Virus record (IMG/VR): IMGVR_UViG_3300045988_100160
Location: 804 to 64,803 of that record
DNA: 64,000 nt
Strand: one strand, 5' to 3'
Source: a virus
The position numbers and the translations under genes were made by a program. A model generated the notes under the pieces. The model was given only the letters and a program-made list of their open reading frames with translations. It did not search any database and was not told the origin of the DNA. Positions within the stretch are counted from its first letter, which is position 1. Each line of letters starts with the position of its first letter. This document shows, in pieces, positions 1 through 64,000 of this stretch.

Positions 1-105
1 TTATTAATTAACATCTAAAATTTTCGATATGGTTTCTGCTGGTGATGGTTGCAATCGTATTGTATGCAATCGAATTTCACGCAACGATTTTTCAAATGAA
101 TATAT

Positions 106-187
106 GAACATATGTTCAAACATCAGTTATCTGAATATGTGTTCATATGAGCATACGTTCAGATGAAAAACATATGAATAACTGTTC
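106..187. promoter_or_regulatory. three SOS-box-like palindromes (GAACATATGTTC 106-117; GAATATGTGTTC 133-144; GAATAACTGTTC 176-187)
   Basis: Read directly from the sequence. The core matches the Firmicute LexA operator shape GAAC-N4-GTTC, and the copies share a CATATG flanking context. Confidence 0.55.
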
Positions 188-590
188 ATGTATTCATCCA
201 TGACTAAAATGCATGTATGCACATATATTCATATAAGATATATAACATTGGTTGTATACAATTAAATTGTAGTGTTCCGCTGGTTTTATCGTATTGATAA
301 TATTTCTCATTCTTGTAGCGGTATATAGTGATGTCTACTATAGAGAGACAAAACATAGATATATGTACACCAAAACAAACAAACGCAAAAAAGCGACAAA
401 ATGCATATGTTATAAAATCGTGTATTTTCGCTTGTATGCTCGTGTACCACTCTAACGTATAATCATAAGGGGAACACTCGAAAACGCTCGTATAACTCAA
501 ATAATGCAACTTTTATTTGAGAACAATTATCAACTACGCTGGCTTTTCTCATTTGTAGATGCTAATTGAGAATACAACGGCAAAACTAAA

Positions 591-610
591 GGCGGTACTT
601 GTGTACCGCC
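591..610 (-). terminator. rho-independent terminator hairpin after 617..904
   Basis: Stem ggcggtac / loop ttgt / stem gtaccgcc, with T-rich flanks on both strands, directly after the stop codon. Confidence 0.7.
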
Positions 611-616
611 GTTGTT

Positions 617-904
617 TTATTCAAAATCTTCCAATTCTTCCATTAAATCACATTTATAGTCATTATCGACATTGTCTATTAAATACTTTACATACTCATC
701 TAAATTATTTTCAATGTCTTCGATGATCTCGTAAGGGTCTACATGTTCCCCTATGTTAGTATGGACTAAATCCAATAATACTTCCTCTAGTTGATACTCT
801 TGAGATAATTCGAGAATAGTTTTACTATTGCCGTCAGCGTAACCAATTAAAAACTCGATTAAATCTTGAGCGTTATATTCTTGTTCTATTGTAAAATACA
901 TCAT
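617..904 (-). CDS. hypothetical small highly acidic protein (95 aa)
   Basis: Track ORF with a GAAAGGA RBS upstream of ATGATG. The product is very D/E-rich. Confidence 0.6.
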   Translation of the reverse strand: MMYFTIEQEYNAQDLIEFLIGYADGNSKTILELSQEYQLEEVLLDLVHTNIGEHVDPYEIIEDIENNLDEYVKYLIDNVDNDYKCDLMEELEDFE

Positions 905-935
905 AACGTTTTATCCTTTCTAATTCTGATAATGT

Positions 936-957
936 GGCGGTAGTGATCACTACCGCC
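936..957 (-). terminator. perfect 22-bp palindromic hairpin after 967..1245
   Basis: ggcggtagtga/tcactaccgcc lies between two minus-strand genes. Confidence 0.55.
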
Positions 958-966
958 AATATTTTC

Positions 967-1245
967 CTAGATGTGCAAAATTACCTTTTCCACCTTCCAA
1001 TTATACCAATCTAGGCGAACGCCTAAATCAATACCATCTAAGCAATTTCCAAAGAGACTGCAGCCACAAGCGTTTACATTAAAATATTTTTGGTCGGTGT
1101 TAGTCTCATAAGTTCGCTGAGTTTCTGTAAAAGGCTTTTCCCAATTATCCTTACTATAGATAATTGTAATTTTCTTATGAGTATCGTATAAGTCATTATT
1201 ATATACGTACTCGCTTAATGCTGATAAACTAGAAAATCCTTTCAT
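967..1245 (-). CDS. hypothetical protein
   Basis: Track ORF trimmed to the second ATG (1245), which has an AAAGGGG RBS 8 nt upstream. The first ATG has none. Confidence 0.5.
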   Translation of the reverse strand: MKGFSSLSALSEYVYNNDLYDTHKKITIIYSKDNWEKPFTETQRTYETNTDQKYFNVNACGCSLFGNCLDGIDLGVRLDWYNWKVEKVILHI

Positions 1246-1443
1246 GAGTTTTACCCCTTTCATATATAATTGTTAAAGACCTACGAAAGATATTTATCAT
1301 CTTTCGTTACACTCATTATACACCTAGAGGAACAATCTGCATAATAGAAAAAATCTATAGCTAGTCATAACTTAAAGCTATACCCCTTGCAGGCGGTACT
1401 CATGAAATTAAATTGCATACAATACAGTTGTACCACATCATAT

Positions 1444-1490
1444 GAATATATGTTCATATGAGTATACATCGGTTATATGAATGTATGTTC
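1444..1490. promoter_or_regulatory. two SOS-box-like palindromes (GAATATATGTTC 1444-1455; GAATGTATGTTC 1479-1490)
   Basis: Read directly. Both carry the same ATATGAAT..TGTTCATATG context as the other copies. Confidence 0.5.
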
Positions 1491-1543
1491 ATATGTTCAA
1501 ACATTCATATGATTGAATACAACTGAGTTGAACACAACTATAT

Positions 1544-1654
1544 CGAAAGTTTTCGTTCTGTAATCCTTTAGTTATCTAAAGTTTTCGAACTGATTGAGAT
1601 TTTTCGATATACTTTATTCATCTAAAGTTTTCAATCTAATCGAAAATTTTGAAT
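1544..1654. repeat. iteron array: 5 copies of (C)TAAAGTTTTCGA-like motif, the last inverted
   Basis: Copies at 1544-1556, 1576-1590, 1596-1610, 1622-1635 and 1641-1654 (inverted). Further copies lie at 15-29 and 62109-62122. Confidence 0.7.
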
Positions 1655-1663
1655 GTATTAAAT

Positions 1664-1677
1664 CGAACATCTGTTCG
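1664..1677. promoter_or_regulatory. canonical Cheo-box-type palindrome CGAACATCTGTTCG
   Basis: Exact match to CGAAC-N4-GTTCG, read directly, immediately right of the iteron array. Confidence 0.6.
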
Positions 1678-2028
1678 CTGGTTGCAGGCGGTCTCGCAGG
1701 TCGTGGCGAACATGTGTGCGGTCAATATGTAATGCCTTGAAAAAACAAACATATGTATCAATATATGAACACATATACATATAAAAAATGGGTGAGATAT
1801 ATATGTATATATACATGTGTAAAATATCGTGGACATATACATATAAATATATACAAATGTAAAAATCCGTGGACAATATCATATATATAAACAATAAAAC
1901 CACCACAGAATTGATTTAAATCGTTTATACGGTGTGTTTATATCCACGGTGGTATATTTGTATACCCCATATGTGAAAACCACCGTACAACGCAAATAAA
2001 TGAATTTCATGGGATGATGCGGTCGTAT

Positions 2029-2040
2029 GAACATATGTTC
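2029..2040. promoter_or_regulatory. SOS-box-like palindrome GAACATATGTTC
   Basis: Perfect GAAC-N4-GTTC core, read directly. Confidence 0.5.
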
Positions 2041-2601
2041 AATCATGGGTGTTGCACCACGGTATCTCAGATGGTTAAAACAAACAGATGTTCGATTGTT
2101 TATTTCTGTGGAAGCATCCATGGTTCGTCAATAGAATAACCCATGAACACACCACAATAAACATTAATAGATAAACACATATATCACCGACACATATATA
2201 CGTTTATTTAATACCACGACATATACAAATAAAAAATACCACCGCATAAAACGTGGACACATAACGAACGTATAATGTATAAGCATATATGCTGCGGATG
2301 CACGATTGTTTCATGCAGGTGTTCGCCATGGTTTTCTATGCGATGGTATTTGATTTCTGTGACAACAGTAGATGAACGCATGAACATTTCCGTGTGGTGA
2401 ATGGTGGTATGATTGCCTGCGTGATGTGTTTGGGATGCATCACACAATGAATGTGGTGTTTGCCATGCGTTTGCAACCTGTTGTCTATATGTATGATAAC
2501 ACAAGACGGTTTGTGTTGTCAACAACCAATGTGTTTTTCTTGGGTTTTATTTTTTGAAATCTTGTTTTTTATTTTTTGGTTTTTAATTTTTTGGATTTGG
2601 G

Positions 2602-12452: not shown

Positions 12453-13748
12453 TTACTTACTTAATAAATTTTCCAACATTTCAACACGTTCTTTTAACTG
12501 TTGTAATTCATCTCGTTTAACATTTGTTGTTTTACCAACCTTAAAGTTTACAGATGCATTAGTTACAGAAGAAGAACCAAAAGACTGTCCAACGTAAAAC
12601 ATTACATTTTCATTCGGAGCGTAGAACGCACCCAATGCACCAGCGTTTGCATTTTTGTAATGTCCAAAGCCTGCACTAATAGAGAACTTATTATGTGCAT
12701 CGAAACCATTCCAATGTAATGCTCCTAAAGCAGATACAGATGCAATAGCTGCATTGGTGCCACGTTCTAATTGGTTTACTTTATTGGTAATATCACCCAA
12801 CATTTGTTGGCTTGAGTGCTCCAATGTGGTAATTCGGTTTTCATGGTTCATAGACACCTGTTTCAACGCTGAAATATCGCTTGTATGAGCGTTTTGAACA
12901 CGCTCTAGTGTATTTGTTCGTGCACCTAAATTTGTAATCGCTTGGTGGTTATCATTAATTAATGCCATTCCAGTACCAATGTCTGCCGCATTTTGACGGA
13001 TGCGATTATCAAATGTACTTACCGTTGTGCCAAGATTATAAATCTTGTTGCCGTTATTTGTAATTTCATCAATGGCTGCATACAACTGAGAACCATTGAC
13101 TGCATCTAAGGAATCTGTGGTAATACGACCAGCAGACACATTTTGTAATTGTCGGTTGTAATTGTGGATTGCACTATAGGTGGAAGATTGTGTAGCACCA
13201 AATGACACACTGGAGTTTGGACTGTCACCTGCGAACACATGAGTCGTGCCATTGATGTCCATTTGACTAAACGCAACAGGGTCAGATGTTTGAGAGTTTG
13301 TGCCAATTGCCACAGAGTTCTGTACTGGGGCACTTGCGTTGTTGCCAACAACCACAGCATCAATACCACGGACAACAGAGTGAGTACCAATGACAATTGA
13401 ACCTTGGTTGTCAACCGTGTTATTTGCACCGATTACAGTTTGTTCTTGGTGATTGCCAATGTAATTATTATAGCCAATTACAGAGGATTGATTCGCAGAT
13501 GTTGTACCATTGCCACCACCTAAGATGATATTATCGTTGCCATTCACAGTATTGTCACGACCCAATACAATCGTATTAGTACCATTCACAACTGTGTTTG
13601 CACCGATTGCAACACTATTATAACCTGTTGCTATAGGGTCAACCGCAGATGGTTCTAAAGAGCCAATCGCAACTGGGTTGGCGGACACACCCATAGTTGC
13701 CATTGCTAATACTGCGGAAATAATCATAGTTTTTGTTTTGTTTTTCAT
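12453..13748 (-). CDS. YadA-like trimeric autotransporter adhesin (signal peptide, head repeats, neck, coiled-coil stalk, beta-barrel anchor)
   Basis: Signal peptide MKNKTKTMIISAVLAMATMGVSA. Repeated NSVAIG/NTV..G head motifs. DAVNGSQLYA neck motif. C-terminal anchor-like strands ALGALHW...SISAGFGHYKNANAGALGAFY...VGQSF. Confidence 0.8.
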   Translation of the reverse strand: MKNKTKTMIISAVLAMATMGVSANPVAIGSLEPSAVDPIATGYNSVAIGANTVVNGTNTIVLGRDNTVNGNDNIILGGGNGTTSANQSSVIGYNNYIGNHQEQTVIGANNTVDNQGSIVIGTHSVVRGIDAVVVGNNASAPVQNSVAIGTNSQTSDPVAFSQMDINGTTHVFAGDSPNSSVSFGATQSSTYSAIHNYNRQLQNVSAGRITTDSLDAVNGSQLYAAIDEITNNGNKIYNLGTTVSTFDNRIRQNAADIGTGMALINDNHQAITNLGARTNTLERVQNAHTSDISALKQVSMNHENRITTLEHSSQQMLGDITNKVNQLERGTNAAIASVSALGALHWNGFDAHNKFSISAGFGHYKNANAGALGAFYAPNENVMFYVGQSFGSSSVTNASVNFKVGKTTNVKRDELQQLKERVEMLENLLSK

Positions 13749-13769: not shown

Positions 13770-14027
13770 TTACAAGGTTTTGTTTAATTTCTGTAGATAA
13801 TCCAATAAGTCTTGCTTGGATGTTTTCTTGATTTGATACATATCCGTTGTTACCCAATCGGAACTACAGATGCATTTAGCACCCAAGGACTTCACACGCT
13901 TATGCCACTGGTCTGTACACAAGTACATCACGCCTTTTTTCATTCGTAGACATTGTGTCTGCGGCCAGTTGTGTCTGCGGATGCCCTTACCGTTTTCCAT
14001 TAATTCGTATGCTTCGTGGAACCGCAT
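13770..14027 (-). CDS. DUF2829-like (Tad2-type fold family) small protein
   Basis: The N-terminus MRFHEAYELMENGKGIRRHNW matches the remembered DUF2829 pattern F.EA...M..GK..RR..W. AAGGAG RBS. Confidence 0.5.
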   Translation of the reverse strand: MRFHEAYELMENGKGIRRHNWPQTQCLRMKKGVMYLCTDQWHKRVKSLGAKCICSSDWVTTDMYQIKKTSKQDLLDYLQKLNKTL

Positions 14028-21189: not shown

Positions 21190-21262
21190 TGCACCCAGCA
21201 AGATTTGAACTTGCATCACGAGAAGATGATAAAATCGTTGCTTTTCATTAAGCTATGGGTAC
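21190..21262 (-). tRNA. tRNA-like gene with aberrant anticodon arm (isotype undetermined)
   Basis: The 7-bp acceptor GTACCCA/TGGGTGC, D-arm GCTT..AAGC and T-arm GCAAG-TTCAAAT-CTTGC are good. The anticodon region, however, is a 4-bp stem ACGA/TCGT with a 13-nt loop. Confidence 0.4.
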
Positions 21263-21417
21263 ATAACGACTTGGGTTTTACCCCAAGTCAGTCAGGAGGA
21301 AAAATCATGCGTATCTCTTGGACTGTTACCCAAGACATACGATGTATGCCATCCGAATGAGAAACCCTTGAGTAACCCATTCGGTGATACAATGCCGTAA
21401 CATATGTATCGTGGCTA

Positions 21418-21503
21418 TGGTGCCGTTGATAGGATTCGAACCTATGAAGCTATAAGCGACAGATTTACAGTCTGTTGTCTTTATCCATCTTGACTACAAC
21501 GAC
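21418..21503 (-). tRNA. tRNA-Tyr (GTA), long variable arm, CCA encoded
   Basis: Hand fold: acceptor GTCGTTG/CAACGGC, anticodon stem ACAGA/TCTGT with loop CTGTAAA, and T-arm ATAGG-TTCGAAT-CCTAT. Confidence 0.85.
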
Positions 21504-21507
21504 ATGC

Positions 21508-21597
21508 TGGAGGAAAGTGTGGGATTTGAACCCACGGAACATTTCTGTTCAACAGTTTTCAAGACTGTCGCATTAAACCAGACTCTGCCAACTTTCC
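21508..21597 (-). tRNA. tRNA-Ser (TGA), type II, CCA encoded
   Basis: Acceptor GGAAAGT/ACTTTCC, anticodon stem ACAGT/ACTGT with loop CTTGAAA, long variable arm, and T-arm GTGGG-TTCAAAT-CCCAC. Confidence 0.85.
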
Positions 21598-21600
21598 ATG

Positions 21601-21675
21601 TGGCTCTTGGGATAGGACTCGAACCTATAACTCTCTGGTTAACAGCCAGATGCTCTACCATTGAACTACCCAAGA
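21601..21675 (-). tRNA. tRNA-Asn (GTT), CCA encoded
   Basis: Acceptor TCTTGGG/CCCAAGA, anticodon stem TCTGG/CCAGA with loop CTGTTAA, and T-arm ATAGG-TTCGAGT-CCTAT. Confidence 0.9.
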
Positions 21676-21838
21676 ATAAATACAACACCACTATATACTA
21701 TCGGATTTGCACTCGATATTTCCGCCCAAAAGGACTTTGTTTTACTCTTAAACTAAGTATGTAGCTGTTGCGTGGCATACATGGTAAAACATTCCATGGC
21801 TACGTTCTACCCTTAACGGCAATGCATGAATACCGTTT

Positions 21839-21928
21839 TGGAGGATGGTACAGGATTTGAACCTGTGGTTGTTTTGCAACAACATTTCTTTAGCAAAGAA
21901 ACTCAATAAGCCACTCTGACAACCATCC
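21839..21928 (-). tRNA. tRNA-Ser (GCT), type II, CCA encoded
   Basis: Acceptor GGATGGT/ACCATCC, anticodon stem TTTCT/AGAAA with loop TTGCTAA, long variable arm, and T-arm ACAGG-TTCAAAT-CCTGT. Confidence 0.85.
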
Positions 21929-22030
21929 ATGTGAGTGGGTTGAGAAAACAGGGTACCTCCGTTCTCTCTCTAACGGCAAACCAACTCATACCGACCACCA
22001 TGGTTGCGACCCATAGTGGATTTACCTTAT

Positions 22031-22146
22031 GGAGAATGTTGGATTCGAACCAACGTCTTCTACTTCGTACACTCTGAACCGTCAAATTTCTGGAGTCGAA
22101 CCAGTATGTTGAACCTCATAGTGCTTTACCATTAAGCTAATTCTCC
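22031..22146 (-). ncRNA. 116-nt tRNA-like element with about 40 extra nt and a second T-arm-like hairpin
   Basis: Perfect acceptor GGAGAAT/ATTCTCC, D-arm GCTT-AATGGTA-AAGC and 3' T-arm GTTGG-TTCGAAT-CCAAC. The interior holds a TATG/CATA stem with 8-nt loop AGGTTCAA, plus CTGG-TTCGACT-CCAG. Confidence 0.4.
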
Positions 22147-30357: not shown

Positions 30358-30798
30358 TTACCCCCAATAATTTAAATCTGACATTTCCCATATCTCAAGC
30401 TCTGTCTCTGGATGTGGCTTGCGAATAATAAATATAAACGTCTCGTTCTTCATGTAGTCAAAGATAAACAAATATGAACGCTTATCTCTTTGATATGAGC
30501 CAAAGCCAATATGTTCGATATTCCAATTTCGTGCAAAAGGTCTTATTTCTTCTTCAAACACAATCCTGAGTGCATTGCCGACCAACTGATAATCAAATGG
30601 CTTGTGAGTATCTGCAATAGATTCTAATTTGAGAAATACTTCTTCTTTATTTGCTGTTTTTAGCTTGGCTAAATATTTATGGCTATTGAGTCTAGTGAAG
30701 AATGTATTCACATTTATATCTTCAATTTTTCTCTTTGGCGTTGGTTTCTTCTTGTTAACAACCAAGAACCCTAGTTGGTTAACTCTACGCATTGTCAT
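30358..30798 (-). CDS. hypothetical protein (replication module)
   Basis: Track ORF. Confidence 0.55.
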   Translation of the reverse strand: MTMRRVNQLGFLVVNKKKPTPKRKIEDINVNTFFTRLNSHKYLAKLKTANKEEVFLKLESIADTHKPFDYQLVGNALRIVFEEEIRPFARNWNIEHIGFGSYQRDKRSYLFIFDYMKNETFIFIIRKPHPETELEIWEMSDLNYWG

Positions 30799-31123
30799 CT
30801 AACCATTTCTTAATGTCAAACTGTTTACGTTCTCTAACGGTTGTGTTTGTATTAGCTTTTGCGAATTGAACTGCATTTAACTCGTTTGCCTGAATAAATA
30901 GGTCGGTTAAAGACATCTCTTTATATTCCAACGAGTTCATGTATTTATGTAACTTCAACATAGAGTTTTCGTCAACCTGCATAAAGAATGAGCGAACTTT
31001 AAAGAACTCAGATGTTGGTTTGTTATTTTTGAACGCACCATTTTTGGTACACTTTTTAAAGTATTGCATGGCGAGTGTCCATGCTTTTTTCTTTGGTTCT
31101 TGTTTTTCAAAGTCGGTTGCCAT
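30785..31123 (-). CDS. hypothetical basic protein next to the iteron region
   Basis: Track ORF with a gACAGGAGGaacatc RBS. Confidence 0.55.
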   Translation of the reverse strand: MATDFEKQEPKKKAWTLAMQYFKKCTKNGAFKNNKPTSEFFKVRSFFMQVDENSMLKLHKYMNSLEYKEMSLTDLFIQANELNAVQFAKANTNTTVRERKQFDIKKWLDDNA

Positions 31124-31404
31124 GATGTTCCTCCTGTCTGATAAATAGTTTGTTTCTGACTTGTTGTACCATCATTATAGCATACCTGTATTACCAAGTC
31201 AAGGAAGTTTTTATCTGACTAAGAAAAATACAATCGGCTTGCCGATTATTGCGAAGCAATTCATATGGTTTGTCGTGTATCTTATGTTATTCGAACGTAG
31301 TGAGAATACATAAGATACCAAACAAGTATTCCACTACTGTATGAAAACCTTAAGTAGAAAAACAGAGAGTGAAAACATATGTATGGGGAACAACAGTTTT
31401 AAGA

Positions 31405-31530
31405 CCAAAGTATTAATAACCAAGGTATGAACAACCAATGTATTCCATACCAACGTTTTAATCCAAAGGTATTCATACACAAGTATACTTAGGTATTAAT
31501 ACACAGGTATATTCTTATGTATTAATACTA
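31405..31530. repeat. iteron array: about 9 copies of CAAnGTATT / GTATTAATAC at 10-15 bp spacing
   Basis: The run reads aagtattaataac, aggtatgaacaac, tgtattccatac, ggtattcatacac, aagtatactt, ggtattaatacac, ggtatattcttatg, tgtattaatacta. It sits inside the 570-bp ORF-free gap 31124-31693. Confidence 0.7.
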
Positions 31531-31693
31531 AGGTTTGATAGGGTATCACAAAAGTCTAAATTTGTCAAGGATAAATATCACAATTTTACACAAAATTTTA
31601 GACATAAGAATTACATTGTTTGAACGCCAAAATACCCAAGCCGTATTTGACTTGGGTTGATTTTGGTTCTCAATATTTGATTGTTAATCTTTG

Positions 31694-45263: not shown

Positions 45264-48200
45264 TTATGATTGTTTTAATTTCCCCAATGCAATGAGTTTT
45301 TGGTATTTAGACAAGAAATCTTGGTCGGATATTGTTTGTTTTACAAACACAGGTTGAGCAATAGATTGTTGTGAACCAGAACTATTGTTCGCCATATAGT
45401 TCATACCCTTAGTCATAGCGTTGGTATTAGCAACCATTTGGTTCATTAATCGGTCTTGTCTCTTAGTTGCATCCGACATCGCACCATGTTTTGTTTCCTC
45501 ATGTTGCCACTTCGGTTCGATACCACTTGTTACACCGACCCCAAGGTCTTTTGCCGCTTGATTAAGTAATTGACGACCTCGTGCTTTATCTGAGGTAGGA
45601 ATAATCCATTCTTTTTTACCACCCTCACCAACACGGACTAATTGGTCTTTATCAACAGAACCGCCACCAGCGAATTTTAACAAGCCAAACTGTTTAGCAA
45701 AACCCATGACAGTACTAAGTGTACCCATCCATTTGTTATTACCACCGCCAGCAATCTTCATGCCAGCATTGATATATTGAGATACATCGGTTTTACCGTC
45801 TTTATCTGTGGCGTTCTCTGGTAAGTCTACCTTGGATGCATCGCCTTGGACATTACCATATATTACCGCATCGGTAAATGTCGCTTGTTGCCAAGCAGTA
45901 CCGTTTTGTGTATTAGCCATGAATGTCTCAAAGTTTTTATCAAGATTTCGTGTCGATTGAGCAGTTAACATTTGATGGTCTAGACTTTCGTCAATACCTC
46001 CAATGTTTTTACCGTCTTTACCATCGCCACCCAACACAGGATTGATACCTTTTTGATATTTCTTATCGAATCTCTTTAGTAAGTTCTGTAGCAAACCACC
46101 ATTACCGTCTTGGATTTTAAATATCATTTTTAAGGCATCTTCGGCAAGTTGTTTCCACAAGTCTTTCCAAATGTCTTTAAACTTTTTACCCTCAAATAAC
46201 AATCCATGGAATACATCGTGCGTTTGTTGCTTGATGTTCTTATTGAGTGAATTACCTGTTTTCTTGATTTGAACCTCTAGCTTCTTGAGTTCAAGACCAG
46301 TCTTACGGATGTCAGCATCAGTATATTCAGAGTCACCACGTTTAAATGCCTCAACCATGTCATGATATTTCTTGGTTTTGATTGTGTATTCTTCAACCAA
46401 GCGGTTGACTGTTCGCAAGTCAGATACCCAGAAGTTTTCAGATATGCCTGCAATCTCACGGTCTAAGTCTTCGCTTTCATGACGGTCTTTCATCATTTGT
46501 GTGGCTTCGTCATAGTCTTTGTCACGATATTTATCTTGAAGACGGTGAGTCATGGTTGCTTCGTATTTCTTCATGGTTTCTTGAAGACTCTTGACATTGG
46601 CTTGAGGATTGAGCTTTAATAACTCATCAATCTCTTTTTGCATGCCCTTTAGCTTTTCAGTCAAAGCCGCAGTCTCTTGTGCAAAATCAGCTTGCTGTTT
46701 TGGTTTCATGGCGTTTTCCATCTCAAGCTGAGTTTTGGCAAGTTTTAAGGCGATGTTTTCAATCTTCTTTTGCTTGTCTATGATTTTGTTCGCACGATTA
46801 TCAGCGGTTTTGTCCTCATCGCCATAACCGTTGTCAGCCAAGGCACGAGCCTTTTGTTGTCTTACCCAGTTATGCTCTTGTGAAGACCGCTCAACGTATT
46901 GGTCGAAGTAAGATGCGTATTCTTCTGGTGTGTTATTGACAGCTTTACTTAAAACTTTTTGCCAATTATCTCGTTCTTTATGTTGCAGCTCATACACAAG
47001 GAACGCAAGTTGTGTTTCAAAAGCAGTATAATCAGAGCCGTTTTCTCTTGCGAACTCTTTTAGGTCTTCCAACCGACTATCTTGCCATTGAGCAATACCA
47101 AAAGCATGACCGTCTGATGCCGTTGGGTCTAGGCTATCATATGACTCTACTTGTAGATTACCGACAATACCATACGCTTGGTTTGGAGTAAAACCCTGTT
47201 TTATCAAGAAGTCAATAGCTGCACCAACTCGTGTTTCTGCCAAAGGGTTCTTTTCTTTCTTGCTTGAGGATTTACCATTTTTCCCTTTAGAGTCTTCGCC
47301 TGCTCCATCAGGTATTTCACTACGAGTGTAATTACCTGTGTTGCCACCACCGACAGTACCATCGCCTGTATGACCTGAACTTGCAGTCATGTTCAATTCA
47401 TTCAGTTTTTCCGCTTGTTCAACCTTAATGTTTGCAATTGCTCGTGCATTAAGTTTAGCGATGGCATCTTGAGCCTCAGATTGCCATTGTTGAGCCATCG
47501 ACAGAGACTCTTGAGAGATATGCATTTGTCGTTCTAAATCAGATGCTCTGTTTTCAAACGCTTGTGCACCTTGCATGTCACCCTCTGCTCGTCTTGCTTC
47601 GGCTTCGGCTTTATCTTCCTCAAGTTGTTTCTTGAGTTCGTCAATCTTGGCGGTCGCACGTTTTTCTTTCCACTCGCCAATGATTTGTAACAGCTTAGCA
47701 TAAGCCAGTTGAGCAAGACCGACCCAACCAATGTACTCTTTCAGCAACGCCATCCGTCTAATCCATCCTGTCTCTTCACTTTTGAGAGACTCGATGTTTT
47801 CATTAGTTGCCGCTCTTAATTGATTTGCGGTTTCAGCGATTGCCGCACGTTCATCCTTGGCAGACTTCTCAAGTTCTTCTTTCTTGCGTGTAATAGCATT
47901 TTGTGCTCTTTGGCTTTGTTCTTCTGCACTATCTGCGGCAAGCACATAAGCAGTTTCTTCTTCGCCAAGTATCGCAATAAGACCTTGTTCTGTTTCATGG
48001 ATTTGGTTTTGTAACAGCATGCGTTCTTGTTCTGTTGTTGCAGTATCAGCGATTTTTTCTTTCAGTCTTGCATGAATAGTGATATATTGTTCTGCAACAC
48101 CTCTAGCCTCTTCCATACGAGATGCCGTTTCTTCGTATTGTTGAGCAAGTTTTTGATGAGTAGAATAATCTTCATACAACGTTTTAGTAGTATCTTGAGA

Positions 48201-59957: not shown

Positions 59958-60488
59958 ATGGCTAATACAACAGAACCAATCAGAAATTTATCCAAAGTCC
60001 AAGAAATGAAACAAGCACTTGGCAACGACCGAGACAAAATGTTATTCACCCTTGGTATTAACTCTGGTCTCCGCATCAGCGACCTAGTAGGGTTGACCGT
60101 AGATGATGTTAAACCAGAGATGGAATTGTATGAACAAAAAACAGGTAAGTTTAAACGGTTCATGTTATCCAAAGAAGTGTACGCATTGTTATGCGAATAC
60201 GCAAGCCGATGCAAGCATTGGCTGTTCCCAAGTCGCTCTGGTGACGGTCATATCTCAACTGTACAAGCGTGGAGAAAAATCAAGGCTGCATCCGTGAAAT
60301 GCGGTTTAGATAACATCGGTACACACTCTATGCGTAAAACCTTTGGGTATCACGCATACCGCAAGGGTGTACCAATTGCATACCTTATGCAAGTCTTTAA
60401 TCACTCCTCGGAAGCAATCACAATGCGATACATTGGTATCACAACCGAGGAATTAAATACTAAAGTTTATGCCATTATGGCTTTATAA
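59958..60488 (+). CDS. tyrosine recombinase, catalytic domain only (176 aa)
   Basis: Catalytic R (GLRISD), HSMRKT (HxxR), NHSS (H) and MRYIG (Y) are present. There is no N-terminal core-binding domain. Confidence 0.8.
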   Translation: MANTTEPIRNLSKVQEMKQALGNDRDKMLFTLGINSGLRISDLVGLTVDDVKPEMELYEQKTGKFKRFMLSKEVYALLCEYASRCKHWLFPSRSGDGHISTVQAWRKIKAASVKCGLDNIGTHSMRKTFGYHAYRKGVPIAYLMQVFNHSSEAITMRYIGITTEELNTKVYAIMAL

Positions 60489-60758: not shown

Positions 60759-60775
60759 TCACAAAGCAATCAACA

Positions 60776-60821
60776 GGGCATACATAAGTTTATATCTTAT
60801 GATATATTCTTATGTATGCCC
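60776..60821 (+). terminator. 13-bp-stem terminator (bidirectional)
   Basis: gggcatacataag ... cttatgtatgccc followed by tgtttgtgttt. Confidence 0.75.
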
Positions 60822-61129
60822 TGTTTGTGTTTCTTGGGGTTGAGTCTGTATGTCTCACCTGTATGTTGTTCTGTAGGCTCATAGGTTAGGTCTCAAACAT
60901 AATATCTGACTATAAAGCAAACACGTTAGTGTTTATTGTCGAAGACAATCCTATAGGTATATACTTATGTATTCTTTAGAGTATTCTTGTTTAGATTGCT
61001 TCGCAATACTCCTTACGGAGTGTCTTTCAAGTCGGTTTCTTAAGTTTGGGGCAAAACCCTTTTTCAAAAGCTGTTTCTTAAAACTCTTTCAAGAAAACCA
61101 TCGCTTTAAAACCTATAAGTGAAAACTCT

Positions 61130-61167
61130 CTCTATATATAGGGTAAAACACTTGATTTTTGTAACAC
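61130..61167 (-). promoter_or_regulatory. 38-nt conserved late-promoter-like element, copy 2 (orphan)
   Basis: On the minus strand it reads GTGTTACAAAAATCAAGTGTTTTACCCTATATATAGAG. It points toward the 60776-60821 terminator and the antisense side of the recombinase cassette. Confidence 0.5.
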
Positions 61168-62150
61168 ATTTTTCATAAAATTGGATAAATATTTTATTTT
61201 ACAAGCTAAAATTTACCCCTCAAAAATGCCACTCCGCCCAGTAAACATCTGCGTTTTGAGACTTGAAAAAATTTTTTAGCTTTTATGAGTAAAAAATGCC
61301 ACATAAGTCTTAAATCGGTAAAATCCGATACATGATTTTTAACTCACGCCACACTAGGTTGGTGTCACTACACTAGGCTTACGACAGTATAATTCTTGGG
61401 TTGGACACAATTTGACCCACGTGGGATAAAATCGAACGAATGTACGTTGGAAAACACAACCATAGTATTATGACGAGTTTTCGCCAACGCCATCCTAGGG
61501 TCGTGATTTTTGGTGGAAAATATTTTGGCTTCGGCTGCAAGTTAGTCTGACTAAAAATAAAGCAATCACCATACTAGTATGGTGATTAACTATGTTGAAA
61601 AAGATTGTCTATACGATACACAATCCTAGTAGGATGCAACCCTAGTACCATGTCACAAACTTATAATAACGCTATACTAGGAAAACATATATCAGAAAAC
61701 ATAATCATCATACTAGGGTTTACGTTTTATAGAAATTACATAAGTTACCCTGTGTGCAACTATAAAAATTTCTACAAAAATTTTAAACGATTGTATTTTC
61801 GATAGACAACCCTAATTGGAAAATACGATTGTTCCATATGATGTTTCATATCTTAGACAATCAATAAGAACGATTGTTTTCTCGATAGTTTTTGCGATTG
61901 CTTTCTACATATGTCATATGTTCGTATGTATGAAACCATAGATAAAACAAGGGTTTGTAGACCATTGTATGTTATGGGGTATGGAACATTTGTATGTGCG
62001 TGACAAGTTTGTTCATATGTGTTGACTGTGGTATGGTCTTTTGTATGGTCTTGGGTTTGTTATGATTATACCGCCCCCAGTTGAGAATGGTTCTCCCTTT
62101 TGGATATTGAAAATTTTCGATACGCCTAGGGGTGTCTCATTGGTTCATAT

Positions 62151-62162
62151 GAACACATGTTC
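62151..62162. promoter_or_regulatory. SOS-box-like palindrome GAACACATGTTC
   Basis: Perfect GAAC-N4-GTTC, in the context catatGAACACATGTTCacatatg. Confidence 0.5.
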
Positions 62163-62307
62163 ACATATGCACCATACTAGGGTTAGTCAATCAATCGAAT
62201 AGTATCAATGTAATAGAATATCCATTATCATTCATTCATTATCATTTGTATTCTCAATATGTAGATATCCTAGATAGACAAATGTCGATATATATGTTTG
62301 TACATAT

Positions 62308-62319
62308 GAACATTTGTTC
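62308..62319. promoter_or_regulatory. SOS-box-like palindrome GAACATTTGTTC
   Basis: Perfect GAAC-N4-GTTC. Confidence 0.5.
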
Positions 62320-62802
62320 ATGTGTCAGCTAATGGTTTACAGTTGGGTAACATATGAGCAGATACTCATGTATGCACCATATGCATTATACTCATGATTT
62401 TTAGTAATGTTTGTTATTGGTGTTTGGCTGGTGGTGGTTACAATTGTATTTTATAAAATGTATTTTGATTGGGTATATCAATAGGGTTTGAAAATTCTGT
62501 AGTACACATCAAACCCAAGTCCCCACCCTAGTAGCCTACATACGCACCACCACACACGCACAATAGACATATACATACGTCTATACATCTGTTACATACA
62601 TTAATTATACATATGTATAAACCAAATAAAAATACAACGGTATACATCAATCGTATATAACCGTTATATTTTGCGTTGTATGGTCTTTTGTTTTCGTTGC
62701 ATATGTTTATATTCGAAAGTCTTTAAACGCACCATATAACTCAAATAACGCAATTGTATTTTCTCATTTAGGTAAACATATTGAGAATACCAGCGTATAT
62801 AT

Positions 62803-62814
62803 GAATGGTTGTTC
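62803..62814. promoter_or_regulatory. SOS-box-like palindrome GAATGGTTGTTC
   Basis: One-mismatch core in the tatatGAAT..GTTCatatga context. Confidence 0.4.
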
Positions 62815-62834
62815 ATATGATAGATATAAATATA

Positions 62835-62861
62835 AGCGGTACAGAATTGATCTGTACCGCT
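62835..62861 (-). terminator. hairpin terminator after 62871..63194
   Basis: agcggtacaga-attga-tctgtaccgct. It corresponds positionally to the hairpin at 591-610. Confidence 0.65.
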
Positions 62862-62870
62862 TGTTATTGT

Positions 62871-63194
62871 TTATAGATTTAAGTTATTCGCTATTAGATT
62901 TTGGTAACAAATATATAATTCATGTTCAAGGAACGGCAACCATTTATATTTATCTGCTTTCTTTAAGGTTGACTCATATAAGTCTATAATTTCATTCATG
63001 ACATACACTCTATATTGTGGCGTGCGATCAAATTCAGTTTGTTTATATCGTGGCTCGTATGAGTTATATCTTGACTCTTCAACTAAAACTAATAATCTTT
63101 CTTTTTCTTTGGTTAGCTTGCCACTTTTGGCGTATGCTTGTAGTGTATCAAGGATAACGTATTTTGTGTATGATATTGAAATAGTAAAACTCAT
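62871..63194 (-). CDS. hypothetical protein (AT-rich)
   Basis: Track ORF followed by a terminator. Confidence 0.45.
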   Translation of the reverse strand: MSFTISISYTKYVILDTLQAYAKSGKLTKEKERLLVLVEESRYNSYEPRYKQTEFDRTPQYRVYVMNEIIDLYESTLKKADKYKWLPFLEHELYICYQNLIANNLNL

Positions 63195-63419
63195 CTTAAT
63201 AACTCCTTTTCTTAATACTCAATAAACACATCATCAAAAGATGCATCTTTTGATACATCATAGTGTTTGTTTACTCCGTTGTATGAATACAACGATTAAA
63301 GACAATAAAACTAAAGCCATATAGATGTGTTCTCCTTTCGATTAATAAATAACTATAGATATAACTCATCAAGATAATAATCTTATGTATATTATCTTTT
63401 GTTTTCATATGCTTTACCT

Positions 63420-63755
63420 CTAGCCGTAAAAGTCGATACATTTTGAATATTGTAAATTGTATTCTATAAATGCTCGTTGATTTTCTTTTTGTTCGCTCGT
63501 TCCGTACTCATCACGATCTTTACACCATTTTGGTTCTTGCCAATCAATGAATAGATTATCGTCATACCTAAATGTACGATAATACATAGAAATATAATCT
63601 AATTCGATAAAACTAGGTAACTCTGAACATAAACTATTCATATATTCATCTATATAATCATAGAAATTATCATAAATTGCATATTCTTGATTTTCTATAC
63701 CGTCAATAACATTACAAACGGCTTTATTTTCAATTAGTAAATCAACAATATGCAA
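63420..63755 (-). CDS. hypothetical acidic protein (start uncertain)
   Basis: Track ORF with a TTG start and no RBS. The frame stays open upstream to about 63880 without a canonical start codon. Confidence 0.4.
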   Translation of the reverse strand: MHIVDLLIENKAVCNVIDGIENQEYAIYDNFYDYIDEYMNSLCSELPSFIELDYISMYYRTFRYDDNLFIDWQEPKWCKDRDEYGTSEQKENQRAFIEYNLQYSKCIDFYG

Positions 63756-64000
63756 TTGTTCACTTGTAAAATTTTGTAAGCGTTCAAGATTTTCACAAAT
63801 ATATTCATTTTCATTTTTTAAAATTCTACCATATTTTAATAATTCTCTAAATTCTATATTTTTATACCTCTTTTCTATAAGTTATTTACAATATCTGTAA
63901 TTTGATAATATATATTATCATCAAATTTTATAAAATCCTCGTTACCCTCTATGAGTTCTAATGACTCTAAATAGTCGCAAAAATCATTATATGATATAAC

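Follow-up and report, generated by a model that had tools for sequence, protein, structure and literature searches.

The core GAAC-N4-GTTC is that of the LexA (Cheo or SOS) box of the Firmicutes, which has CGAAC-N4-GTTCG as its consensus and for which GTTT variants are found among the natural LexA boxes of B. subtilis. The ARG box of ArgR/AhrC is an 18-bp palindrome (WNTGAATWWWWATTCANW), and arrays of short boxes are bound by ribbon-helix-helix (RHH) proteins, such as ParG on parH/OF of TP228 (ACTC boxes with 4-bp AT spacers), omega on its heptads and MetJ on its metboxes. On the scale of genome organisation, T4-type phages have hyperplastic regions with PeSL cassettes, and T5 has a pre-early region with repeats and palindromes. 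Here we describe arrays of a palindrome with GAAC-N4-GTTC-like cores in an uncultivated phage genome with a full size of 63-71 kb, of which a 64-kb stretch (IMG/VR record IMGVR_UViG_3300045988_100160, positions 804 to 64,803; hereafter the window) was analysed and compared with about 30 relatives. In the explanation we prefer, to which we give an even chance, the palindromes are operator-like arrays for a putative dimeric DNA-binding protein, probably phage-specific, which acts in the spacers of the early region.

The likeness to the LexA box lies in the 4-bp boxes around a 4-bp AT-rich centre, and two copies in the window (1664-1677 and 2081-2094) match the full Cheo consensus. The half-site of the phage element, however, reads TGAAY and continues into long CATA arms, the C critical to LexA is not conserved and the flanks are T/A, while the sites are polymorphic, dispensable and missing from related phages of the same host family. 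ARG boxes (TGAAT-N4-ATTCA) share with it the invariant TG...CA, the AT-rich centre, the presence of multiple sites, and the T at the fifth half-site position, which is found in half of the copies, but here the right half is mostly GTTCA, there is no 2-3 bp gap between pairs, and the arrays are specific to a phage family and not to a host regulon. With the RHH arrays it has in common short boxes on a strict sub-helical 8-bp lattice, runs of two to five boxes, a variable copy number and box orientations that flip between alleles, and the partner would likewise be a small protein which is easily missed by profile libraries; it differs from these arrays in its preference for the convergent dyad. 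The early region as a whole resembles the T4-type hyperplastic regions, and as in the T4 and T5 early regions there are hypervariable small open reading frames (ORFs) with their own σ70 promoter and terminator, exchanged at conserved flanks, and large non-coding stretches dense in direct and inverted repeats. Unlike in T4 and T5, the spacers are 1-2 kb long and contain at least six repeat families, with the dyads located outside the promoter-terminator cassette. Phage GIL01 also lacks a recognisable CI-type repressor and is described as directly controlled by LexA through a few boxes overlapping promoter P1 (PMC4551915), whereas in the phages studied here there are 2-10 sites in promoter-distant arrays.

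Clustering of palindromes in the non-coding islands

The early region covers 7-8 kb from 60760 round to 2601, with position 1 of the window following position 64000 after about 1.5 kb. It is made up of small genes on the minus strand that each have a predicted σ70-type promoter, a 5' untranslated region (5'UTR) and a stem-loop terminator of their own, and the cassettes are separated by 1-2 kb spacers, here called islands. The three ORF-free islands of the window sum to 4.07 kb:

1-616: island A, early-region spacer downstream (in the sense direction) of early gene 617-904; no credible ORF
1264-2601: island B, the large left island; no credible ORF
60760-62870: island R, between the convergent recombinase operon (plus strand) and the last early cassette (minus strand)

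The islands are taken to be non-coding because their ORFs lack ribosome-binding sites and differ by single-base indels among relatives, and Rfam and tRNA scans gave no match in them. Islands homologous to island A are also present in relatives.

GAAC-N4-GTTC occurs at 106, 1665, 2029, 62151 and 62308, together with a single coding copy at 45379 (six vs 0.94 expected in the window), and GAAT-N4-GTTC at 133, 176, 1444, 1479 and 62803; all ten core coordinates given in the original prediction were correct. When the islands alone were compared with 2000 dinucleotide shuffles, GAAC-N4-GTTC was observed 5 times vs 0.038 expected, GAAY-N4-RTTC 10 times vs 0.29 expected and TGAAY-N4-RTTCA 9 times vs 0.069 expected, and for each of these three patterns none of the 2000 shuffles matched the observed count, which bears out the earlier claim that the clustering in non-coding DNA is far above chance. 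It is also clear that the motif is commoner in the islands than in coding DNA, since all nine copies of the 14-mer TGAAY-N4-RTTCA in the window (1.17 expected) are in islands with none in the 58 kb of coding DNA, and since the exact half-site CATATGAACA occurs seven times in the 4 kb of islands vs once in the other 60 kb.

A 22-bp dyad on an 8-bp lattice

Alignment of 59-84 distinct copies from the window and its relatives gave a unit of 22 bp, yATATGAAy-N4-rTTCATATg (consensus CATATGAACATATGTTCATATG), which is common to nine of the ten copies first listed, in agreement with the longer shared context proposed for them. The tenth, at 1665-1676, does have the perfect core, but it belongs to a separate class (class I) with CGAAC...GTTCG flanks and without CATATG arms, and hence does not share this context. 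The sites in the window are as follows, with group 1 being the group of genomes to which the window belongs (see below):

101-122: dyad A1, TATATGAACATATGTTCAAACA, core 106-117; palindromic only in the window among the genomes compared
128-149: dyad A2, TATCTGAATATGTGTTCATATG, core 133-144; orthologues range from GTTC to TTTC or GCTC
144-165: degenerate dyad A3, CATATGAGCATACGTTCAGATG, on the 8-bp lattice of A2; GAAC-ATAC-GTTC in most relatives
171-192: dyad A4, CATATGAATAACTGTTCATGTA, core 176-187; an additional ATTC box 8 bp further
214-235: degenerate dyad, TGTATGCACATATATTCATATA
1439-1460: dyad B1, CATATGAATATATGTTCATATG, core 1444-1455; the orthologous site is GAAT in six genomes and GAAC in six, the window included
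1474-1511: dyad B2, TATATGAATGTATGTTCATATG, core 1479-1490, with two more RTTC boxes on the 8-bp lattice
1664-1677: class-I box 1, CGAACATCTGTTCG, an exact match to the Firmicute Cheo consensus, which may not be that of the host; no CATATG arms
1762-1783: half-site copy, TATATGAACACATATACATATA; conserved in group 1
2024-2045: dyad C, CGTATGAACATATGTTCAATCA, core 2029-2040; inside a mosaic segment
2081-2094, minus strand: class-I box 2, CGAACATCTGTTTG, exact Firmicute Cheo consensus, forming an inverted repeat with box 1; absent from the earlier listing
62146-62167: dyad R1, CATATGAACACATGTTCACATA, core 62151-62162; preceded by a GTTC box on the 8-bp lattice
62303-62324: dyad R2, CATATGAACATTTGTTCATGTG, core 62308-62319; the best positionally conserved copy
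62351-62372: degenerate dyad, CATATGAGCAGATACTCATGTA
62798-62819: dyad R3, TATATGAATGGTTGTTCATATG, core 62803-62814; 15 nt from a bidirectional terminator (62832-62864) and conserved in seven relatives

The most informative positions of the dyad are the outer ATATG/CATAT arms, with T5, G6, C17 and A18 conserved in 92-98% of copies and the base preceding GAA being a T in 98%. Position 9 (the C of GAAC) is C in 49% and T in 49% of copies, and position 14 (the G of GTTC) is G in 73%. This symmetric pair showed no compensatory covariation (C-G 34, T-G 29, C-A 12, T-A 3), as would be expected if each half-site is read independently, and not if the element works as a hairpin or an RNA. The GAAY/RTTC boxes follow an 8-bp lattice, with a distance of 8 seen 16 times vs 1.3 expected and a distance of 16 seen seven times, and the centres of consecutive dyads are 16, 27, 35 or 43 bp apart. 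Pairs of boxes spaced by 8 bp were convergent in 56 cases, direct in 47 and divergent in 11, vs 3, 19 and 6 respectively in coding DNA, which corresponds to an enrichment over the coding background of about 13-fold for convergent pairs and about 1.7-fold for direct pairs. The sites are grouped in arrays of 2-5 which lie mid-spacer in 1-2 kb of non-coding DNA, and arrays A and B, which are 79% identical over 75 nt, are paralogous modules.

With regard to transcription signals, no dyad overlaps a predicted -35 or -10 element, all promoters used here being predictions. Array B is located 93-180 bp upstream of the conserved -10 elements (1320-1315 and 1346-1341) of gene 967-1263, and for all other sites the nearest predicted promoter is hundreds of bp away. 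Those in the right island are located between convergent units and have neither a downstream gene nor a promoter downstream on either strand.

Comparison of the arrays among relatives

The relatives were divided into group 1, consisting of 18 genomes (the window, L002/L141, L003, L081, L140, L143, L146, L148 and L153-L162), and group 2, consisting of about 12 genomes; in 10 further genomes the early regions hold every dyad of the genome. Orthologous sites were compared with those of the window (92 comparisons), giving an identity of 0.902 for the core, 0.937 for the arms, 0.905 for the centre and 0.913 for the flanks. The GTTC box is repeatedly swapped for GCTC, GTAC, TTTC or ATTC in relatives, and at 106 and 62151 the perfect core is the minority allele, most genomes having a direct repeat there: the place of A1 is a GTTC-ATAT-GTTC direct repeat in 10 of the 11 aligned relatives, which have a dyad 8 bp upstream, and the place of R1 is a GAAC-ACAT-GAAC direct repeat in 8 of 12 relatives and is wholly replaced in group 2. 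At the place of R2 a dyad is kept in both groups though the flanks no longer align, with GAAT, GAGC, GCTC, GTAC, TTTC and ATTC as core variants. Dyad C is found only in the window, L146 and L160, the other group-1 genomes having an unrelated segment there.

Copy number also changes rapidly, with 2-9 strict dyads per genome among ten genomes with an identical recombinase. Array B (about 100 bp) is precisely lost in L154 and L162 through two different deletions between flanking direct repeats, and in L157 no strict dyad was found where array A would be. About 40-50% of the dyads in group 1 have a perfect core, whereas in group 2, where 1-3 degenerate dyads remain per genome, a perfect core is almost never seen; co-evolution of the sites with a factor of the phage would be expected to produce such a systematic shift. 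The distant relative L086 of Veillonella sp. 3310 has no such dyad; its equivalent island carries ATCTATAGAT and TATACCCCTAT repeats, and a related TTCAT...ATATGAT element follows its early-gene terminators. A further 1.84 Mb of other fetched phage and genome loci contained 11 such dyads and no cluster. Judged by these sequence comparisons, the sequence family is maintained, the bases that are maintained are not those read by LexA, and individual sites and arrays are dispensable.

The class-I pattern gave three strand-matches (two distinct boxes) vs 0.21 expected, and its boxes bracket a conserved block of iterons and AT-rich DNA. Box 1 is retained as GAAC-N4-GTT(C/T) in 17/17 group-1 genomes examined, and in the 11 group-1 genomes in which both boxes were picked up by the search pattern, a GAAC-N4-GTTT box is 420-424 bp away from it. 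Because the whole block is about 90% conserved, this conservation is uninformative, and the class-I boxes were not found in group 2. The pair is a weak LexA candidate, and comprises the only sites for which a LexA reading would still be reasonable.

A separate observation is that boxes flip between GAAC and GTTC, with simultaneous AA/TT changes, at three sites in near-identical genomes (101-122, 62146-62167 and array B of L141), a pattern suggestive of template switching or small inversions that involve pairs of self-complementary CATATG hexamers.

Several other functions for the dyad were considered and set aside. The lack of covariation at the 9/14 pair led to rejection of an RNA or DNA hairpin, and a TTCTCA/TGAGAA 'hairpin' turned out to be a direct repeat in L086. 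A triple-CATATG or NdeI-type methylation site was weakened by the left hexamer, which is TATATG in half of the copies, and by the poorly conserved middle hexamer; there is also no avoidance of CATATG, since 36 copies were counted in coding DNA vs about 19 expected from a composition estimate. A ParG-like lattice with free orientation is only partly supported, as the convergent arrangement dominates. An invertible segment between Cheo-like boxes or dyads was discarded, the reverse-strand BLAST matches in group 2 being those of a repeated module (1977-2012) that occurs in several islands in both orientations, and integron-like capture of cassettes at dyads was rejected as the exchange boundaries lie elsewhere.

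Host and lifestyle of the phage

Nearest-relative and protein searches found no close relative among GenBank phages, the TerL protein being only 33-36% identical to that of Mu-like phages. The nearest genome matches of TerL were a syntenic element in Veillonella sp. 3310 (64% amino acid identity, locus L086) and a contig of a Megasphaera metagenome-assembled genome, and these matches, the membrane anchor of a YadA-like protein and the 38% GC of the window together point to a host in the Veillonellaceae, presumably Veillonella. Many relatives of 63-71 kb are present in IMG/VR and ENA, assembling as circles, and for the lineage of the window itself only free contigs of 63-70 kb were seen. The exact recombinase protein was present in 453 blocks of a public assembly collection, none of them on a contig >200 kb, so the lineage looks like a free phage and not an integrated prophage; a capsid query, made as a check of prophage context, had no match in representative genomes. 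Locus L086 was found with a TerL profile at 133776-155440 of contig NZ_RQVJ01000003.1, within a 232-kb contig of an isolate genome, and could be an integrated or assembled-in relative.

A putative binding protein and alternative explanations

From the dyads and their distribution we infer that a protein binds them, that this protein is probably of phage origin and that its binding would have a regulatory consequence. The recognised unit would be the 22-bp dyad with a half-site of about 8 bp (ATATGAAY), GAAC-N4-GTTC being merely its inner part, and several dimers would bind cooperatively to form a nucleoprotein block in the spacers. Such a block could modulate the early region, e.g. if early transcription units were silenced or insulated as infection proceeds, or might mark the region for another DNA transaction; a classical repressor site that overlaps a promoter is not what is envisaged. 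Arguments for this explanation are the strong and exclusive enrichment in the islands, the regular architecture, the lack of pairing covariation and the restriction to this phage family; moreover, the same half-site is common to all copies, as expected for a specific sequence and not a generic palindrome, and the dyads at R2 and R3 are kept in group 2 like a footprint, despite surrounding island DNA which can no longer be aligned. The original prediction had offered gating of the phage by host LexA, titration of LexA, and a look-alike operator for another dimeric protein as possibilities, and of these the evidence favours the last.

There are also points that weigh against it. No helix-turn-helix, winged helix-turn-helix, RHH, S24 or ArgR-like binder was found among about 80 ORFs searched with Pfam, PHROGs and NCBIfam, and phmmer searches of 680 six-frame ORFs against LexA, AhrC, Arc, omega and Cro gave no match; with these tools there was likewise no RHH, Arc, omega, MetJ or ParA match in the window, although a small divergent RHH protein could escape them. 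The early cassettes adjoining the arrays are not conserved between the groups that share the motif, so that a phage-encoded binder would need to be an unannotated core protein. Conservation of the orthologous sites exceeds that of their flanks by a narrow margin (arms 0.937 vs 0.913), the loss of whole arrays implies that selection on any one site is weak, duplication of modules could explain part of the pattern, and for the right-island sites there is no promoter downstream on either strand.

It is rather unlikely that the dyads have no protein partner at all, and are self-propagating AT-rich quasi-palindromes which are tolerated in the spacers or have a structural role only (cruciforms, bendability or recombination hot spots), created when sequence is duplicated locally and when templates are switched or small segments inverted between CATATG hexamers. 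Such an origin fits with the fast turnover among the ten genomes with identical recombinases, the independent loss of array B in two genomes via flanking direct repeats, the GAAC/GTTC flips at three sites, which inversion or template switching would be expected to produce, the paralogy of arrays A and B, and site conservation that barely exceeds that of the flanks. It does not fit with the persistence of the half-site in group 2 amid sequence diverged beyond alignment, with the regular spacing between dyads and the strong preference for the convergent over the direct and divergent orientations, or with the 92-98% conservation of T5, G6, C17 and A18 without compensatory changes, a constraint that is not driven by pairing. 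Binding by host LexA, either as an SOS-responsive controller of the early region or as a titrating sponge, we consider unlikely. The geometry of the sites is identical to that of the Firmicute Cheo box, with five perfect island cores and five copies of GAAT-N4-GTTC as originally reported, and the two class-I boxes, which match the consensus exactly and are retained in group 1 with a near-constant spacing, are in its favour. The original prediction had noted the lack of a CI-like repressor, and no repressor of the CI, Cro or S24 type was found with the profile and phmmer searches described above. V. parvula expresses a LexA (PMC6052428), and GIL01 provides a precedent for direct control of a phage by LexA (PMC4551915). 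The variable copy number and the lack of promoter overlap would fit better with a sponge than with an operator. Against LexA, the C of GAAC is a 50:50 mixture of C and T and polymorphic at single orthologous sites, 98% of copies have a T instead of the consensus C before GAA, with flanks of T/A and not C/G, and the GTTC box is recurrently changed. The core shows no extra conservation (0.902 vs 0.913 for the flanks), the best-conserved part being the outer arms, which are irrelevant to LexA, and for two of the perfect cores (106 and 62151) the usual state is a direct repeat, with the palindrome in the minority. Good boxes are missing from the closely related group 2 and from the Veillonella-resident L086, and the class-I boxes lie in a uniformly conserved block and are absent from group 2. 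Neither for gating of the phage by host LexA nor for titration of LexA, two of the initial proposals, is LexA supported as the selecting protein, given the variable C, a core that is no better kept than its flanks, the deletion of arrays in natural variants and the absence of overlap with predicted promoters. LexA control of lysogeny is also hard to fit with a lineage without sign of lysogeny that appears only as free contigs. A Veillonella LexA box was not found in the searchable literature, and a protein search with B. subtilis LexA returned Bacillus proteins only. LexA may still bind the perfect-core copies in vitro, and the probability we leave for it rests mostly on the two consensus boxes and on a host motif that might prove similar; the GAAC-N4-GTTC shape by itself is no evidence for LexA.

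A broader form of titration, which appears quite improbable, is that the dyads are immediate-early decoys of a virulent phage that soak up a host dimeric protein, be it LexA or a DNA-binding defence or silencing factor. The decoys would act as the genome enters and replicates, and their copy number would be a fast-evolving, tunable trait, which would explain the avoidance of promoters, the range from 2 to about 10 copies in near-identical genomes and the loss of whole arrays. Reading of the sites by another host regulator is very improbable, the best look-alike being ArgR/AhrC: the GAAT copies match the ARG consensus at 17/18 positions (e.g. TATGAATATATGTTCATA at 1441-1458), a consensus which may not be that of Veillonella, and the invariant T before GAA and the AT-rich centre suit ARG boxes better than Cheo boxes. 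While 49% of copies have TGAAT as the left half, GTTCA forms the right half in 73% and ATTCA in 20%, the dyad spacings of 16, 27, 35 and 43 bp differ from the ~21 bp of paired ARG boxes, and the argument from family specificity applies as for LexA, with no dyads in L086 and no cluster in the 1.84 Mb of other loci. As the motif is as close to ARG boxes as to Cheo boxes, resemblance alone cannot decide between these regulators. It is also highly unlikely that the dyads are sites for a DNA transaction, i.e. targets of a Xer-like recombinase, of terminase (pac recognition) or of an origin-binding protein. About 300 bp from island R lies the gene of a 176-aa recombinase that has no other domain than the catalytic one, with TerS and TerL just past it, a reading as arm-6 bp-arm (ATATGAA-CATATG-TTCATAT) recalls the layout of dif and lox, and island B holds iterons and an AT-rich block. 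However, recombination between at least ten symmetric copies over about 7 kb would delete or invert early genes, and no inversion or deletion joining dyads was seen among close relatives; cassette exchange ends at 5'UTRs and terminators and not at dyads, the array-B deletions use other flanking direct repeats, and the presence or absence of arrays among viable genomes is incompatible with a unique essential pac site or origin.

Early-region cassettes and other repeat families

The early genes differ among genomes that are otherwise about 90% identical (617-1263 and 62871-64000; L141 and L153-L162), with exchange breakpoints at the ribosome-binding site or 5'UTR and at the terminators. In L086 the early promoters are exact TTGACA-17-TATAAT sequences. 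Island B contains, in order, a minus-strand promoter (2522-2493), CCGTGG-type iterons and 40-nt direct repeats, an AT-rich block, TTTTCGA palindromes, dyad array B and the promoters of early gene 967-1263. The promoter at 2522-2493 (minus strand) is a near-consensus extended σ70 promoter (TTGACA-18-TG-n-TATCAT) that is kept in relatives and faces 1.2 kb of non-coding DNA, with no predicted terminator ahead of gene 967-1263; its product could be a non-coding RNA, a long leader or a transcript that activates an origin.

A second palindrome family, (A)TCGAAA-N-TTTTCGA(T), is found at 12-31, 1541-1654 (as tandem 46-nt units in island B) and 62110-62125, the copy in island R being kept in every aligned relative. 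The third dyad family (TTGTATACAA / GATTGCATACAA; 59-70, 252-261, 1413-1422 and 1513-1522) flanks arrays A and B, and its direct copies on either side of array B are the breakpoints of the natural deletion in L154. TGAGAAT motifs form another island repeat family, and CCGTGGACA iterons sit within the 40-nt direct repeats. The stretch 1759-2270 has three direct repeats of about 40 nt, each with a terminal AAAATCCGTGGACA, as well as CCACGG/CGTGG boxes in both orientations and an AT-rich TATATAC block. This stretch, which can still be recognised in group 2 and shows about 90% conservation within group 1, looks like an iteron-type origin or another protein-binding array. In island R there are about 12 copies of the CTAG-containing CAYMCTAGK (61350-61815, 62172, 62268 and 62524), and its sub-motif [AC]CTAG[GT] occurs 11 times in the islands vs 12 times in the 58 kb of coding DNA. 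It is also conceivable, though quite improbable, that the islands, with six or more repeat families, form a multi-protein 'switchboard' that controls a hypervariable region of anti-defence cassettes.

Other genes and features of the window

Nearly all genes of the window are on the minus strand, and their annotation included the following:

window: replication and nucleotide genes, encoding a DnaE-type polymerase, DnaB, DnaG, an SSB-like protein, ThyX, dUTPase, dNMP kinase, RusA and exonucleases
window: packaging and portal genes, encoding a Mu-type TerL and a Mu-type portal, with TerS also present
window: other annotated genes, i.e. three DNA methyltransferases, a YadA-like protein and a tRNA cluster

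The tyrosine recombinase (59958-60488, plus strand; 176 aa) lacks the N-terminal core-binding domain and is Xer-like (PDB sequence match to the XerC-like 4a8e, E = 5e-10); it is transcribed divergently from terS-terL and has homologues in >580 viral contigs. The YadA-like trimeric autotransporter (12453-13748, minus strand) has head repeats, a stalk and a membrane anchor, is likely to be a host-range or adhesion factor, and is a clue to a host with two membranes. An 85-aa protein (13770-14027, minus strand) gave a near-threshold match to the Tad2-like domain of Thoeris anti-defence (24.2 bits vs a cut-off of 25). Six tRNA genes are clustered at 21190-22146 (minus strand), four of them predicted by ARAGORN (Tyr, Ser-TGA, Asn and Ser-GCT) and two by Rfam, one of these a 117-nt match at 22030-22146. 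Inside the replication module, 570 bp of non-coding DNA (31124-31693) contains about six AGGTAT(T/G)NA repeats, some 20-26 nt apart, upstream of two basic proteins without annotated function (30785-31123 and 30358-30798).

Significance for the phage lineage

The LexA reading, if true, would make this a new phage that is gated by the SOS response or titrates LexA, with an important commensal of mouth and gut as its host, but it is unlikely in view of the comparative data. The dyad arrays are a variant of an already known kind of element, and the cassette-and-spacer architecture in which they are embedded is more unusual than the dyads themselves. For an abundant lineage of uncultivated Veillonella phages a cis-element has now been well defined, and its motif, its lattice and its natural deletion variants provide an experimental handle on the putative regulator that would organise early gene expression in these phages.

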